From positions 32,001 to 96,000 of the forward strand of contig MTLP01000031.1 of the NCBI GenBank assembly GCA_002009975.1: a DNA stretch of 64,000 nucleotides, given 5' to 3'. The position numbers and the translations under genes were made by a program. This DNA comes from Thermococcus sp. JdFR-02 (lineage in GTDB: Archaea; Methanobacteriota_B; Thermococci; Thermococcales; Thermococcaceae). The notes under the pieces were generated by a model. It worked only from the letters and a program-made list of their open reading frames with translations, was not told where the DNA came from and made no database searches. This document shows, in pieces, positions 499-33,525 of this stretch. How positions within the stretch are numbered: position 1 is the stretch's first letter; each line of letters opens with the position of its first letter.

Positions 499-575
499 GC
501 CCCGGTGGCTCAGCCTGGTAGAGCGCTCGCTTGGTAAGCGAGAGGTCGCGGGTTCAAACCCCGCCCGGGGCTCCA
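499..575 (+). tRNA. tRNA-Thr(GGT)
   Basis: GCCCCGGTGGCTCAGCCTGGTAGAGCGCTCGCTT-GGT-AAGCGAG...GGGGCTCCA. Confidence 0.95.
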
Positions 576-691
576 TTCTGTTTACTTAATCTGCATAATT
601 TTCCATTTAGATGACTTTTTATTACCCTTAAATAAGCATTTCTATAGGAATCAACAAAATTTGTGTCCTAATTTCTCCCTTTTGGACAATT

Positions 692-725
692 GAAACGATC
701 TGAAACATTCGTTCCATGATGTTCC
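692..725. promoter_or_regulatory. Putative operator: GAAAC-n5-GAAAC-n4-GTTCC-n5-GTTCC
   Basis: Two direct half-sites 10 bp apart facing two inverted half-sites 10 bp apart, about 60 bp upstream of the ABC ATPase start. Confidence 0.4.
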
Positions 726-783
726 TTATTTAGGTCTAAACGCTTAGATAGCAATCGAGAATATAGTAACGGAGGCATTTGTA

Positions 784-1728
784 ATGTACGTCATTGAAAC
801 TGATAAACTTACAAAGGTTTATGGAGATATTATTGCAGTCGATCATATTGATCTAAAAGTCAAGAAAAATAGAATATTTGGGTTTTTAGGACCTAACGGA
901 GCAGGAAAAACAACGACAGTATTGATGCTCTTAGGTTTGATACAGCCCACGGAAGGTAGAGCCTATGTAAATAACATAGATGTTCAAGAAAAACCTATTG
1001 AGGTTAAGAAAATAAGTGGCTATTTACCTTCAGAGAATGGGCTATATCCAAACATGAGCGCTTTAGACAATCTGCTCTTTTTTGCAAAATTCTATAAGAT
1101 CCCAAGGAATGAAGCAAAGAAGATAGCTTTAGATTTGCTTGATCTTGTAGGACTTAAAGAAGTCGCAAAAAAGAAAGTGGGAGAGTTTTCTACAGGAATG
1201 AAGCAACGGTTAGCTTTAGCTCAAGCCCTTATCAACGATCCAGAAATTCTTTTCTTAGATGAACCTACAAGCGGTTTAGACCCAAAAGGGGCAGTTGAAA
1301 TAAGACAACTCATAAAGGACCTTAGAAAAGAAGGCAAAACAATATTTTTAACCTCACATATATTGCCTGAGGTAGATGAAGTATGCGACTCAATAGGGAT
1401 AATAGTTAACGGTAAGCTGGTTGCTATGGGAAGTAAAGAGGAGTTAAAAAGGGCATTTTTGAACGAGAAAGTCAGGATTCTTGTTGAAATTGAGGAATCT
1501 CTACCAGACCTTTCAGAATTTGCAACTGATATTAAACTTTTTACAAAAAACAAGGCAATGATTTATGCTAAGGCTGATATAAGAAAGGAGCTTTTTGAGT
1601 ATCTTAACTCAAATGGATACACGGTTCTTGATCTCCATCTAATGGAACCTACCTTAGAGGAGATCTTTTTGAAAATGGCTTATGGAGAGGAACCTGTATT
1701 AGAAAAAATTACTGAAGGTGAAAGATAA
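784..1728 (+). CDS. ABC-2 type exporter ATP-binding protein
   Basis: Walker A GPNGAGKTT, signature FSTGMKQR, Walker B LFLDEP, H-loop SH. Confidence 0.93.
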   Translation: MYVIETDKLTKVYGDIIAVDHIDLKVKKNRIFGFLGPNGAGKTTTVLMLLGLIQPTEGRAYVNNIDVQEKPIEVKKISGYLPSENGLYPNMSALDNLLFFAKFYKIPRNEAKKIALDLLDLVGLKEVAKKKVGEFSTGMKQRLALAQALINDPEILFLDEPTSGLDPKGAVEIRQLIKDLRKEGKTIFLTSHILPEVDEVCDSIGIIVNGKLVAMGSKEELKRAFLNEKVRILVEIEESLPDLSEFATDIKLFTKNKAMIYAKADIRKELFEYLNSNGYTVLDLHLMEPTLEEIFLKMAYGEEPVLEKITEGER

Positions 1729-2750
1729 TGCTAATGATCATAGCTGAGAAGGAATTTAAGGATTACATAACAAGTAAACGCTTTCTATTAATTTTCGGCT
1801 TTCTTTTGCTAATAAGTATAGTCTCAATATGGCAGGGATATAATATATATCAAGCAAGACTCGAGAATTATGTTGCAGGCAAAACCAAATTCCAACCAAG
1901 CATATTTGACATATTCACACAAGTTAGAAATTACTTAGGGCTGATTGGAGCAATATTTGCCCTTTCCCTTGGATTTGATGCTATCACAAAAGAACGCGAG
2001 ATGGGAACACTCAAAGTTTTAATGAGCCATCCAGTTTATAAAGATCAAGTAATCTTAGGGAAGTTCCTTGGAGGAGCTTTGACCCTTGGTCTTTCAATTC
2101 TCATAATGACACTAACATCTCTCGGAGCACTCTTAATCTTAGGAGTCCAAATTGACGGCGAATCGCTTATGAGAATAATTCTTTTCATGCTTTTTGCTTA
2201 TCTATATCTCCTACTTTTCCTTGGTGTTGGAATGGCTTTCTCAGCACTTTCAAAAAACAGCAGCAATGCCTTGATGTATTCCCTTGTTTTGTTTCTTATT
2301 CTAATGATAATCTTCCCTACAATAGCTCCGATGATAGGAGAACACTATGCTGGAGATGCACCACAACAACCTCAAGTTTCAAGAAAAGAAGATCCTCATG
2401 CATGGGAACTCTACATAAAGAACTATATGAAATGGCAACAGAAGCGTTATGGAATTGAAAACAAGATAAATAGCTTTTCCCCTTATTACAACTTCCAGCA
2501 GCTCGGTAGTTATATCTTAAATCCTTACAAGTCCACACAATCTAATCTTCCAATAATACAAAGAGTGATAAGCAATCCTCAGCTTGCACAGGTTCTTAGA
2601 AAAAGCGGTATTGTAAAGATAGAACTTGAAAAATATTCACTAAGCCAAAGTCTTTCATTTGCAACATCGCATATAGTTCTCTTAATAGCTCCCCTAATAA
2701 TGAGCTTTATAGTGGCATATGTAGCGTTTATGAGAAGTGATATGAGGTGA
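1728..2750 (+). CDS. ABC-2 type exporter permease
   Basis: Multiple TM segments; GFDAITKEREMGTLKVLMSHP..VILGKF motif; TAATG coupling to the ATPase. Confidence 0.88.
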   Translation: MLMIIAEKEFKDYITSKRFLLIFGFLLLISIVSIWQGYNIYQARLENYVAGKTKFQPSIFDIFTQVRNYLGLIGAIFALSLGFDAITKEREMGTLKVLMSHPVYKDQVILGKFLGGALTLGLSILIMTLTSLGALLILGVQIDGESLMRIILFMLFAYLYLLLFLGVGMAFSALSKNSSNALMYSLVLFLILMIIFPTIAPMIGEHYAGDAPQQPQVSRKEDPHAWELYIKNYMKWQQKRYGIENKINSFSPYYNFQQLGSYILNPYKSTQSNLPIIQRVISNPQLAQVLRKSGIVKIELEKYSLSQSLSFATSHIVLLIAPLIMSFIVAYVAFMRSDMR

Positions 2751-30064: not shown

Positions 30065-30619
30065 TCACCGATAGTCTAATGAGATTTCTACGCTATAATT
30101 GGCTTCACCCCAGATATTTACTACTAACGTCTTAATTTTAACCTTTGGATTAATTTCAAGAACAGGCTGTGCAAGGATATCGAAACATCCTGCTTCAGAC
30201 CTACATTCCTTATCGTCGCAAATCTTCCAACTTGGTCTTGGATCACATTTGTAAAAGTAAAACTTCAGGAAGAGGGTCTCATTTTCATAAGCACAAGTCG
30301 TTAGGTTGAAAAAGGGATTTCCAGCACCATAGAATCCAAAAATTATGGTAATTTTATTATCCTTAATTAGCACACTACTATTATTAACTCTTGTCCTATT
30401 TCCTTTGGGAATTTCTTCAAAGAAGGGCAATATCCTTCTGTATTCAACAAAATTAGAGCAGTTAGATTGCCAAATGGAGGGCTTTCTCACGACTTTAAAA
30501 TGTTCATTCATGCTTATGTTGTTTGGGGTGGTTTCATTAATACTTATTTCCCGATTGTGATAAAAGAAAACAGCAACAAGCAAAAGCAGAAAAAGGGATA
30601 TTAAAGCTTTCTTGAACAT
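30065..30619 (-). CDS. Membrane-anchored Cys-containing hypothetical protein (paralogue of 31394-31933)
   Basis: N-terminal TM, GAGGTG RBS, shared motif FNLTxCAYENETLFLKF. Confidence 0.8.
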   Translation of the reverse strand: MFKKALISLFLLLLVAVFFYHNREISINETTPNNISMNEHFKVVRKPSIWQSNCSNFVEYRRILPFFEEIPKGNRTRVNNSSVLIKDNKITIIFGFYGAGNPFFNLTTCAYENETLFLKFYFYKCDPRPSWKICDDKECRSEAGCFDILAQPVLEINPKVKIKTLVVNIWGEANYSVEISLDYR

Positions 30620-30731
30620 CTTGAGACACCTCAGGTATTACTTTCAAATCTTATCTAGTGTTAACCTTCATATTTTCATTTTTCGATAATTAAGTTATTG
30701 TTAAAATCTATGTAAACTTCTTTTTAAGACA

Positions 30732-31154
30732 TTAATCCTTAAAGACAAAAATTTCTGTTTTTGTAACCTTCTTCAAAAACTCAACTTTTAAGCCGCCATA
30801 ACCAACAAATTCACACCCCACCATTGTATCATTAGTTAAATTATATCTGTTCCTAGTTAAATTGAACACTTCCTCACATCTGTCATTAAGCCAAATTTTT
30901 ACCTCTACAGTTTCATTTCCCTTTTTGCATTCTATCGCAGTTATCTTATCAATCAAAAAATTCTCCTCAAATAAAACTGCCCCAACAATGGAGCCTACGG
31001 AAATTGTCCTATTGTCAACAATTTTTGTTTCACTCCAATTTGGAATTATCTCCACTAGGATATATTTCTCACAGGATAAGGGCGAATATTGAGGTTTATG
31101 CATTATCAACAAGAAAATAATGAGAAAAAGAAGGATTAACACTTTCCTAAACAT
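30732..31154 (-). CDS. Membrane-anchored Cys-containing hypothetical protein
   Basis: MFRKVLILLFLIIFLLIM anchor, four Cys, GGGGTG RBS. Confidence 0.72.
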   Translation of the reverse strand: MFRKVLILLFLIIFLLIMHKPQYSPLSCEKYILVEIIPNWSETKIVDNRTISVGSIVGAVLFEENFLIDKITAIECKKGNETVEVKIWLNDRCEEVFNLTRNRYNLTNDTMVGCEFVGYGGLKVEFLKKVTKTEIFVFKD

Positions 31155-31393
31155 TATGATACACCCCATGTTACATCACTCATTACTACTTCATTTAGTT
31201 CAGTCACACAGGAACTAGGAATCATTTACTATACTGTTATGACAAATTTTCCTTATATTTCTCTTTGTTATTTGTTCTAAGAGATTTCAATACTACAATT
31301 AGTATCATTATACATACAAACAGTCAACTTCTTAAGTTTGATTTTTAGTGTAATCTCAAGAATTGAGGATGCCAAGTCTCACAATTGTTGCGG

Positions 31394-31933
31394 TTATTTT
31401 TCACCTTCATGCCATTCCAGCGGATATCTCAGTGGAATTTCGAGTGTATAACGAAGCTTTCCCCAAGTTTGTATTACAAGCTTTTTGGCTTTTACTTTAG
31501 GAGTTATCTCAAGGATTGGAGGCTCTTTAATATCCAAGCATGTCCAAGTCACAGAAGAGACTTTGTTGTGATAGTAACAATCACCAAACTGAAACTTTAA
31601 AAAGAGTGTTTCATTCTCATAAGCACAAGAAGTCAAGTTAAAGTAATGGGGTATTGCTCCATAAAATCTCTCTTTTCTGAAAATTACTATAATTGTGCCA
31701 TTTTTGATTAATACCTCGCTATCCTCAACTTCTGTCCAATTTCCCTTAGGAACCCCTTCAACCGGTCTAAAAATCACCTTATAATCCACAAAGTCAGAGC
31801 AGTTAGGTTGCCAAGCAGGAAATTCTCTGGTTTTTGGGGAAATGTCAGTGTTGTGTTTTCCAACATTCCAAGTAACTATGATGATAACAAAAAGAAAAAG
31901 GAAAGTTAAAAATATTTGAACATTTCTTCGCAT
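31394..31933 (-). CDS. Membrane-anchored Cys-containing hypothetical protein directly downstream of the protease
   Basis: N-terminal TM; AGGTG RBS right after the protease stop; paralogue of 30065-30619. Confidence 0.8.
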   Translation of the reverse strand: MRRNVQIFLTFLFLFVIIIVTWNVGKHNTDISPKTREFPAWQPNCSDFVDYKVIFRPVEGVPKGNWTEVEDSEVLIKNGTIIVIFRKERFYGAIPHYFNLTSCAYENETLFLKFQFGDCYYHNKVSSVTWTCLDIKEPPILEITPKVKAKKLVIQTWGKLRYTLEIPLRYPLEWHEGEK

Positions 31934-31944
31934 TTTAAACACCT

Positions 31945-33263
31945 TCAACTAATATCAAGCACTATTCCCAAATCCTCTTCAATTCCATCAATAGGGCTAT
32001 AACCTGCTACAGTTTCAGTCCCTCCCCAATGTATACCATAAATCACTGCAGCTTCATTTCTGTAGTTGTGGTAGACTGGGGCCCCACTATCCCCACTAGC
32101 ATGCTCGTAGTAGCTTCCATTTGACAATAGAGAACCCCTCCTCCCTTTGGATATGAAGTTACACACTTGCCTGTAATTGCACCAGAGGTTTTTCCTGTTG
32201 TTATACCTACTTTATATACTATCTCCCCGATATATTGGTTTGAGGAGTACCTCTTTCCTATAACATTGCCATTGCTATAAATTCCTGTTGAAATGTCTGC
32301 ATTAGTAACTTCAATCAACAGTGAATCACTATACCTCGGAAGTGGTGGATTATAAACAATTACTCCAATGTAATTATCTGACCCCTCTGTAGGTTGATAC
32401 ACCGGTTGTCCAGAGGTTCCATAGTCTCCAAAATGGCCAGCTGTTACAGCATATTTCCTGCTTCCATAGTAACCTACATAACCTAATGTACCGGCACCTC
32501 CCTTTTCTCCATTGACTATTTGTATTCCCCCAACTAACGGTCTAATTCTGTCTGTGTTGCTCTCTAATTTCATGTATTCCCTTTTTTCTATTCTTACTGC
32601 TTCTTTTGGTATTCCAAGTTTTTCTAATTCATTTTCAAGGAGTTTCAGTTTCTCTGGTGTTACCTCTGCCAAACCTATGGTTAAAGTGTTGTGAGCTTCG
32701 TCAGCATCAATCATTGTAACACCAAGTTTTTTTACATCAAGCTTTTCCACAAGCTTCTTCCACTTTACTAACTGATAAAAGCTGTATTCACCTTTTAGGA
32801 ATACCACGTTTACTTTTCCCCTGTGTTTTCCTAATGTTTGCTTGATTTTCTCCTTATCCTTCTCATCCTTCACGTACACGAAAATTAATCCCTTCTCCTC
32901 ATTAATAAACATTCCTCCATACGAGGGCACGTTCCTAGAGAATTTGCCGTGAAGCTCATCAATTCCCAGCAAATCAGTTAAATCCTTTGCAGCTTGATGT
33001 AAAACACTAACATCAGGCTTCTTAAAAATTCCGTAAGGCATTTCTTTGAATGCAAACCCCATGAAACCCTTAACTTTTTCAGGCTCTTGGCAATACCACC
33101 AGACTCTGGGCTCGCTCTTCTCAACCCACCGCCCATTCTCAAAAACCCAATAATTTACCATTTGACAAGTCTTGCCCTTATCACTACTTCTAATCCCCGC
33201 GCTCCCAAAAGAACCCAAAACCAATAAACCAAGCAATAAAATACCCAGTAGTTTCCATCGCAT
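31945..33263 (-). pseudogene. Secreted S1 (chymotrypsin/alpha-lytic-type) serine protease, split by a 1-nt frameshift
   Basis: Signal peptide, pro-region, RIRPLVGG, TAGH (His) and YSD (Asp) in ORF 32043-33275; GDSGAP (Ser) and GIHWGG in overlapping ORF 31945-32166; span is 1319 nt, one short of a multiple of 3. Confidence 0.85.
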
Positions 33264-33525
33264 TGGTATCACCATATAAAGTTTTCATAATTTTATATAA
33301 TCTCAAGATATTTAAAATTTTTGACTTTAAGATATCAAATTTATTTTAAAAAAAGTAAATGTTGGAAAGCCTCATTTTCGAAATAGAAGGAATTTAAAGC
33401 AGAAAAATCCCAGAAAGTAACCAAAATGTTGATACTTTTTTGATTATCTAAATAAATTACTACTTTAATGTGTTAAACTGATAGAAGTTATCACTCTCCT
33501 AATTTTCTCCCAAAACACTTTTATG

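Follow-up and report, generated by a model that had tools for sequence, protein, structure and literature searches.

A frameshifted secreted protease and its surface-anchored partner genes in Thermococcus: one copy of a candidate protease and self-protection module of Thermococcales

What does an archaeal genome hold when its gene for a secreted protease is disrupted and intact genes for small membrane-anchored proteins stand behind it? The question is raised by a block of four genes in Thermococcus sp. JdFR-02, within a stretch of 64,000 nt of contig MTLP01000031.1 that was analyzed as a whole and is called the window here. All four genes read from the minus strand. They are an S1 protease gene with a catalytic domain of the type that we call A, interrupted by a frameshift (positions 31945..33275), and three small open reading frames (ORFs), sA (31394..31948), sB (30732..31169), and sC (30065..30619), of 184, 145, and 184 amino acids (aa), respectively. 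A first-pass annotation, made from the sequence alone, had listed the protease and three small N-anchored ORFs, all of which we recovered, and had read them as an effector with immunity proteins or inhibitors. We postulate that the block combines a protease with a self-protection (inhibitor or immunity) module, in which proteins of the sA family would be surface-anchored putative blockers of the matching protease type; from the sequence evidence, we give this reading a probability of roughly 45%.

RESULTS

Protease type and partner family match across Thermococcales

The comparative survey covered 99 Thermococcales genomes. The family to which sA and sC belong (the A family) gave 13 matches in 10 of these genomes, none with an internal stop, and sA and sC are its sole copies in their own genome (2.36 Mb in 44 contigs). 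Eight of the 13 genes lie directly downstream of a protease gene, with a start that overlaps the protease stop or lies within ~20 nt of it, and the linkage that the first-pass annotation had read from a single locus is therefore seen in other genomes as well. Four of the 13 stand behind an intact protease and four behind a broken one: the copy in the window, another frameshifted copy, an internally deleted copy, and a copy in at least two fragments. Another four stand apart from any protease; these are sC, two orphans, and a further orphan whose sequence overlaps a gene from a different partner family. The last of the 13 lies at a contig end.

Proteases of types A, B, and C are each followed by a different family. 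All eight A-type or A-like proteases or protease remnants precede an A-family gene, and all nine type-B proteases or 3' fragments precede a gene for an unrelated anchored protein of ~210 aa (the B family). Both type-C proteases with readable downstream DNA precede a gene for a secreted protein of ~460 aa (the C family); the contig of a third C-type copy is too short for the downstream gene to be read. At the family level, type and partner thus matched (A with A, B with B, C with C) in 19 of 19 readable cases. A comparison of the A and B families with hhalign detected no relation (probability, 1.5%), and the ESM Atlas returned no usable match for the B partner. At one locus (L055:7102-9107, plus strand), a type-B protease is frameshifted near its N terminus and has lost its stop, and a 581-aa ORF there fuses the catalytic domain with the B partner.

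The protease gene is a mosaic

The two parts of the protease differ in how far they have diverged. The N-terminal ~246 aa, comprising signal peptide and pro-region, are 59 to 82% identical between any two proteases, whereas the catalytic domains fall into three types that are 29 to 41% identical to one another and 53 to 96% identical within a type. The catalytic domain encoded in the window is 78% and 75% identical to those of two type-A orthologues and 33 to 40% identical to those of types B and C. For an A/B pair, the synonymous distance (dS) was 0.54 in the N-terminal part versus 2.47 in the catalytic domain; for an A/A pair, the values were 1.27 and 0.85. These discordant synonymous distances indicate that the protease gene is a recombinant mosaic.

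The protease is a secreted S1 enzyme, disabled in the window

The window encodes the protease in two frames, an ORF of 410 aa (32043-33275) and one of 73 aa (31945-32166), that align colinearly as one gene with intact orthologues of 443 to 466 aa; a 13-residue insertion of some orthologues is absent. The signal peptide (residues 1 to 27, with a putative end at SFGSAG; 33195..33275) has a hydrophobic N terminus that is kept in all orthologues. It is followed by a pro-region (about residues 28 to 243; 32547..33194), which is 60 to 82% identical in every protease pair regardless of catalytic type, and by the catalytic domain, which begins at IRPLVGG (31948..32546). The His motif TAGH (32427-32444) and the Asp motif SDS (32316-32333) precede the point at which the two frames meet, where one base is missing relative to the relatives (32110..32112), and the Ser motif GDSGAP (32077-32094) lies in the second frame. 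With its catalytic motifs split over two frames, the window copy as it stands in the sequence cannot give rise to an active enzyme.

The frameshift is unchanged in contigs from three sequencing runs, belonging to three studies, over the stretch that they cover, one of these runs possibly being the source of the assembly. Its presence in all three indicates that it did not arise from an assembly error in a single data set. In a relative with ~93% identity, sequenced in a fourth run, one additional T stands directly behind position 32110, and L087, a metagenome contig from a 93% relative, reads through the frameshift site of the window; the L087 protease is broken at three or more other places, and the sA orthologue there is intact.

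Sequence profiles placed the protease with difficulty. Pfam Trypsin (PF00089) reached an E value of 0.0035 with one orthologue (17.6 bits, below the cutoff of 20.6) and did not match another, NCBIfam held nothing relevant for the protease pieces of the window, and the best PDB sequence match by phmmer was alpha-lytic protease, with an E value of 0.17. An AlphaFold model of an intact orthologue, built on a 42-sequence alignment (predicted local distance difference test [pLDDT], 85.5; predicted template modeling score [pTM], 0.85), matched Streptomyces griseus protease B (SGPB; 3sgb_E) with an E value of 2e-12, a template modeling (TM) score by target of 0.84, and a root mean square deviation of 2.7. 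It also matched alpha-lytic protease, the Lysobacter enzymes L1/L5, TFPA, and NAPase (E values from 2e-12 to 1e-9; TM scores by target of 0.71 to 0.84). All 42 aligned homologues, distant bacterial ones included, have H284, D328, and D419-S420-G421 in common.

The model thus identifies the protein as a secreted alpha-lytic or streptogrisin-like (S1E-like) enzyme. The structural match and the invariant His, Asp, and Ser bear out the earlier description of a signal-peptide S1 protease, the window gene being a frameshifted copy. Relatives in Thermococcus and Pyrococcus are named "S1 family peptidase" or "protease" in public sources, and the family is annotated but uncharacterized. The conserved N-terminal domain of ~215 aa is modeled confidently as an alpha/beta fold, with a low-confidence linker at residues 244 to 251; by analogy with the alpha-lytic protease family, it may act as a foldase or pro-region.

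sA and sC are anchored, sequon-rich members of the A family

The beginning of sA overlaps with, or adjoins, the stop of the protease gene; its likely start codon is the ATG at 31931-31933. sA and sC are paralogues (49% identity over 142 aa; E value, 1e-40), and the motifs that the first-pass annotation had noticed in the first and third small proteins are indeed shared. sA, sB, and sC each have a basic N terminus followed by a hydrophobic stretch, and they contain 5, 6, and 9 N-X-S/T sequons, respectively. Together, sequons and anchors fit glycosylated surface proteins, and an extracellular location is plausible.

The ectodomain was modeled as all beta (pLDDT, 81; pTM, 0.78), with a low-confidence loop of ~20 residues at a variable region. 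Between the motifs LFLKF and PKVK, sA and sC are 33% identical, versus 57% elsewhere. In sA, the variable region, with a Cys pair (GDC...WTC; 31538..31585), forms the low-confidence loop between model strands 73-82 and 104-109; in sC, it contains four Cys residues (30185-30250). The loop differs between partner subtypes but does not vary inside a subtype. Nine residues are invariant in 12 aligned ectodomains (W5, C9, V13, L64, C67, L74, L76, K110, and G122). The two invariant Cys residues of the family belong to the NCS and GCAY motifs and lie outside the variable loop.

A profile search of 1.84 billion representative proteins with the A family found 10 proteins. One of them, P0010, a protein of 4,224 aa that matched in six weak stretches (E value, 5e-9), is a bacterial repeat protein of the type IX secretion system type, and the match was discounted as repetitive or compositional. 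A single-protein scan for relatives yielded L087 as a true relative; its chance-like match of 16 residues at L088 was also left aside. The partner families are unannotated and without a known fold. One A-family partner (L044:4964-5896, plus strand) is 310 aa long and has a weak fn3_6 match (E value, 0.016); its extra C-terminal half resembles, by eye, secreted proteins of ~177 to 179 aa near the protease in two other genomes.

Partners persist as orphans beside broken or missing proteases

In the survey, 10 proteases were intact; broken copies of full length numbered at least 7, in addition to 5 stumps of the 3' end. The stumps are all of type B (44 to 139 aa, 78 to 81% identical to an intact enzyme) and each overlaps an intact B partner, in five genomes; one of these five modules lies downstream of an intact A protease with its A partner. 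Elsewhere, two orphan genes, one for an A partner and one for a B partner, overlap each other away from any protease, and single genomes have partners of types A, B, and C yet one intact protease. The B family occurs in 21 of the 99 genomes, and 23 of its 25 matches are free of internal stops, most of them without a full protease nearby. The layout of effector, cognate gene, and orphans that the first-pass annotation had proposed is thus present in the order, as a mosaic N-terminal module, three catalytic types with their own partner families, and orphan modules and arrays. Likewise, the pattern of intact small genes beside a broken protease recurs in other genomes and on contig L087.

Ratios of nonsynonymous to synonymous change (dN/dS) for partner genes ranged from 0.12 to 0.30, with 0.18 (at a dS of 0.86) between one orphan and another. 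These values point to purifying selection on the partners; for the orphans they are only suggestive, since they reveal constraint but do not date it.

Several further loci illustrate the variety of these remains. On contig 2 of the JdFR-02 genome, L075 (7227-8387, minus strand) encodes a B partner of 210 aa, followed by an N-terminally truncated copy of 138 aa. The B partner has 88% identity with a counterpart found alongside an intact protease elsewhere; L075 itself has no protease, and a 72-aa ORF there resembles the protease signal peptide. The locus lies between methyltransferase paralogues and is syntenic with the protease locus of another genome. Homologues of the C partner occur without a type-C protease at three loci: split into two ORFs after a B pair (L048:8728-10177), broken into three or more pieces next to fragments of a protease (L057:7440-8462), and intact beside a stop-ridden protease remnant (L061:7190-8575), all on the plus strand.

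On contig 4 of the same genome, L076 (5852-7069, plus strand) encodes a 405-aa secreted protein whose signal peptide is nearly identical to that of the S1 protease. It has a Peptidase_C39_2 domain (E value, 2e-9) and a pro-part with weak likeness to the Spi inhibitor (E value, 0.0011). The site is the FEN1/acetyl-CoA-synthetase locus, which a type-B S1 protease occupies in other genomes. Similar signal peptides start other ORFs of ~300 to 430 aa in several genomes.

The block is an AT-rich insertion that includes an ORFan

The G+C content of the stretch from sA to sC is 0.335, against a window mean of 0.381, and is lower than that of every 1,884-nt segment sampled. Orthologues of the flanking genes lie ~120 nt apart at 3 of the 11 loci of relatives examined. 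This adjacency identifies the 3.5-kb block as an insertion, in agreement with its first description as an AT-rich accessory block between core genes. A search around the block for flanking repeats or mobile-element ends gave nothing convincing, and no terminal repeats were found. Within it, 224 nt separate sA from sB and 112 nt separate sB from sC.

sB, the middle ORF, had been taken for a relative of its neighbors with a similar layout of a Cys, a loop, and Gly-Cys. No relation of sB to sA or sC was detectable by BLASTP (E value, 18), a local hidden Markov model (HMM) comparison (E value, 4.1), or hhalign (probability, 0.3%), and we dropped both that claim and our own by-eye pattern (C-x3-NET ... 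C-loop-C ... K-V) that would make it a diverged family member. The 99 genomes contain no sB homologue, and a search of 5.8 billion proteins returned sB alone; it is an N-anchored ORFan.

An 18-nt motif (TTTAGTGTAATCTCAAGA-like; 78 to 83% alike) occurs at 33291-33308, upstream of the protease start; at 31344-31361, just downstream of sA; and at 30144-30161, within the sC gene. On the coding strand, the first of these copies includes a TATA-like run.

DISCUSSION

The anatomy of the locus, its linkage and type matching, the mosaicism, the orphan modules, and the extracellular features described above are direct observations. We favor a blocking role for the partner because of the combination of operon coupling, type matching, a mosaic effector, modules of stump and partner, mixed orphan arrays, and partners that outlive proteases. 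Binding, inhibition, and protection by the partner are what we infer. The block would be one copy, now disabled, of a modular locus specific to Thermococcales, in which a conserved signal and pro-region has been recombined with one of at least three types of catalytic domain and each protease type is presumably cotranscribed with its own family of surface-anchored partners. On the outer face of the membrane, the partner would bind or block proteases of the type with which it is paired and thereby spare the surface of its own cell, and additional and orphan partners, such as sC, could protect against proteases released by neighbors. In the JdFR-02 genome, the protease would be dead and the protective genes alone intact.

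A more far-reaching version is possible but doubtful. It would make the locus a weapon and shield system of Thermococcales, in which secreted proteases with swappable domains attack the surfaces of neighbors, the unrelated anchored A, B, and C families are new inhibitors that confer immunity, and orphan copies are collected even after the cell's own protease is lost.

Several observations weigh against a blocking role. The matching of types does not extend to alleles: two catalytic domains that are 96% identical (dS, 0.53) have partners that are 44% identical (dS, 2.8), another pair shows 89.5% identity in the catalytic domain versus 58.5% in the partner, and the orthologue to which the window protease is 78% identical has a partner with ~32% identity to sA. 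This mismatch argues against tight one-to-one cognate pairs. Nor is the variable loop specially conserved. Between partners of near-identical proteases, it is 34% identical versus 48% for the scaffold, which rules out our proposal that, among the partners of one protease subtype, the scaffold drifts and the loop is kept. The Cys-bounded divergent loop of the first-pass annotation stood in part: the region does diverge between sA and sC, but the Cys pair that bounds it is found in 5 of 12 aligned A-family members, and a disulfide-closed hypervariable loop is a trait of a subgroup rather than of the family scaffold.

Likeness to a known inhibitor, which the first-pass annotation had suggested, was also not found. 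No family model in Pfam or NCBIfam matches any of 16 A-family members, a profile search of the PDB with the A family gave nothing, and Foldseek with the sA-family model gave no PDB match at an E value of ≤0.001. The best Z scores in VIA structure searches were 3.9 (wide search) and 3.8 (second look); the top rows (NigD-like proteins, GspB, and adaptin ears) were tied with unrelated folds and were not used. Partners are also found away from S1 proteases or in decay: distant B-family members occupy a conserved protease-free locus in three genomes, a B partner at L081 (5173-6857, plus strand) is translationally coupled to a secreted non-S1 protein of 347 aa without a Pfam match, which may be a further type of effector, and some C partners are split or decayed. 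The retention of sA is itself of limited weight. Against its orthologue in the 93% relative, sA has a dN/dS of 0.25, and the protease pieces of the same pair have ~0.22 (from summed counts, with site numbers scaled from sA). The pieces are about as constrained as sA, which indicates that the protease died recently and that the retention of sA proves little; for the same reason, we rejected dN/dS as proof of selection on orphans.

An alternative hypothesis, which we consider unlikely, is that the partner is a membrane-anchored subunit like PrcB that binds and stabilizes the protease, holds the anchorless mature enzyme at the surface, and is needed for activity. According to passages of PMC8167434, PrcB is a lipoprotein of the Treponema denticola dentilisin operon that interacts with the PrtP protease and is required for its expression, and it has been proposed to anchor the dentilisin complex. 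Operon coupling and type-level matching fit such a subunit equally well, and a loose match of alleles poses less difficulty for an anchor than it does for a specific inhibitor. Such pairs exist in the organism: on contig 44 of the JdFR-02 genome (L086), a lipoprotein-like gene with a true PrcB_C domain (PF14343, 56.5 bits; 556-1089, plus strand) immediately precedes the gene of a subtilisin-like serine protease (1098-2486, plus strand), an archaeal counterpart of the prcB-prtP arrangement. The comparison with PrcB_C that had been proposed at the outset found weak structural nearness, in that the ESM Atlas placed the sA model near two PrcB_C clusters (TM, 0.50 to 0.55, with 96 to 99 residues aligned), which is below the tool's own bar and again speaks against a blocker. 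It found no link by HMM or hhalign. The PF14343 HMM, run over the whole genome at E values of ≤10, left sA and sC unmatched and hit only the gene on the other contig; it matches 0 of 16 A-family members, and hhalign gives a probability of 0.4% between the A family and the genome's own PrcB_C protein. A PDB sequence search found no solved PrcB_C structure. Moreover, the partner lies downstream of its protease, whereas prcB lies upstream, and an obligate subunit should not persist as orphans, in protease-free arrays of A and B partners, or behind 3' stumps in many genomes.

It is improbable, in our judgment, that the small proteins are rapidly evolving surface glycoproteins that serve some independent function (for example, in the envelope, in adhesion, or as a protease substrate or receptor) and that merely share variable islands and operons with secreted hydrolases, neither protecting against the protease nor acting as its subunit. 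The B members at the protease-free locus and behind the non-S1 protein would suit such a role, as would the greater frequency of the B family than of the type-B protease, the divergence of partner alleles independently of the protease domain, and the same general build of the ORFan sB. On the other hand, 19 matches of type and family in 19 readable cases, together with stop and start codons that overlap or adjoin, are difficult to explain unless the partner is functionally connected to the catalytic domain, and the A family, so rare among the 1.84 billion representatives, is otherwise confined to the protease context. Distinctly improbable is the view of the whole block in JdFR-02 as a decaying remnant without present function, in which disabling mutations have not yet hit sA and sC, and sB is open merely by chance because its DNA is rich in AT. 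It would account for a protease that is frameshifted in all three runs with this DNA and, by its dN/dS, recently inactivated, for small genes that are short targets, for an sB without a homologue anywhere searched, and for a contig of the relative that departs from the window at 31372 and lacks sB and sC. However, sA retains a dN/dS of 0.25, sA and sC are both intact with all family-invariant residues although they have diverged to 49% identity, and, in the order as a whole, the reading frames of orphan partners are intact much more often than those of proteases. We retain a surface-anchored blocker as the preferred reading.

The literature that we searched contains no description of the module; a 2019 mBio survey of archaeal polymorphic toxins, which lay outside that scope, could contain it. 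Among the passages of PMC8416519 with the word "protease," none is about the module, and in the portions of text covered, PMC6393860 does not contain "serine protease" or "trypsin" and PMC9425974 does not contain "protease." Very little is known about competition between archaeal cells. If the protective reading is true, Thermococcales would have an archaeal effector-immunity system with an extracellular protease as the effector, and up to three new families of hyperthermostable protease inhibitors. If the partner is instead an anchor, the locus would show how archaea without an outer membrane retain a diffusible protease at their own surface. In either case, the strict match of domain type and partner family offers a clean, testable pairing in the genetically tractable Thermococcales.

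Among known systems, the protease resembles the alpha-lytic and streptogrisin group of S1 enzymes (SGPB, alpha-lytic protease, L1/L5, TFPA, and NAPase) in its catalytic fold, its His/Asp/Ser triad, its secretion, and its long N-terminal pro-region. Within this group, alpha-lytic protease and L1/L5 serve to lyse other microbes. Unlike that group, the protease described here is archaeal and only marginally similar in sequence, and its pro-region is far more conserved than its catalytic domain and has been recombined with three domain types.

Bacteria have protease and inhibitor pairs encoded in one operon, such as staphopain and staphostatin, AprA and AprI, serralysin and Inh, and SpeB and Spi. 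As in those pairs, a small beta-rich protein is encoded beside a secreted protease, in a compartment that needs shielding. We found no similarity to them in sequence or fold, and the present locus differs in being polymorphic, with orphans, and in that its partner is membrane anchored on the outside of a cell without a periplasm. With PrcB, the partner shares its small size, its membrane anchor, its place in a protease operon, and, for sA, a weak structural resemblance; PrcB differs in that it partners a subtilisin, sits upstream, and is a requirement of its protease, not a protection from it.

Another comparison is with polymorphic toxin-immunity systems (contact-dependent inhibition [CDI], Rhs, and similar), orphan modules included, which Zhang et al. 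reportedly set out in 2012. The Thermococcales locus departs from them in that its variable domains are all homologous S1 catalytic domains rather than unrelated toxins, its conserved part is a signal peptide and pro-region rather than a delivery stalk, its putative effector would act outside the target cell, and its partner alleles track effector alleles poorly. What it shares with these systems is an architecture in which the N-terminal part is conserved and the C-terminal (here putative) effector domains vary, a small gene directly downstream that here matches at the level of the family, displaced modules of a 3' fragment with its partner, and arrays of orphan partners.

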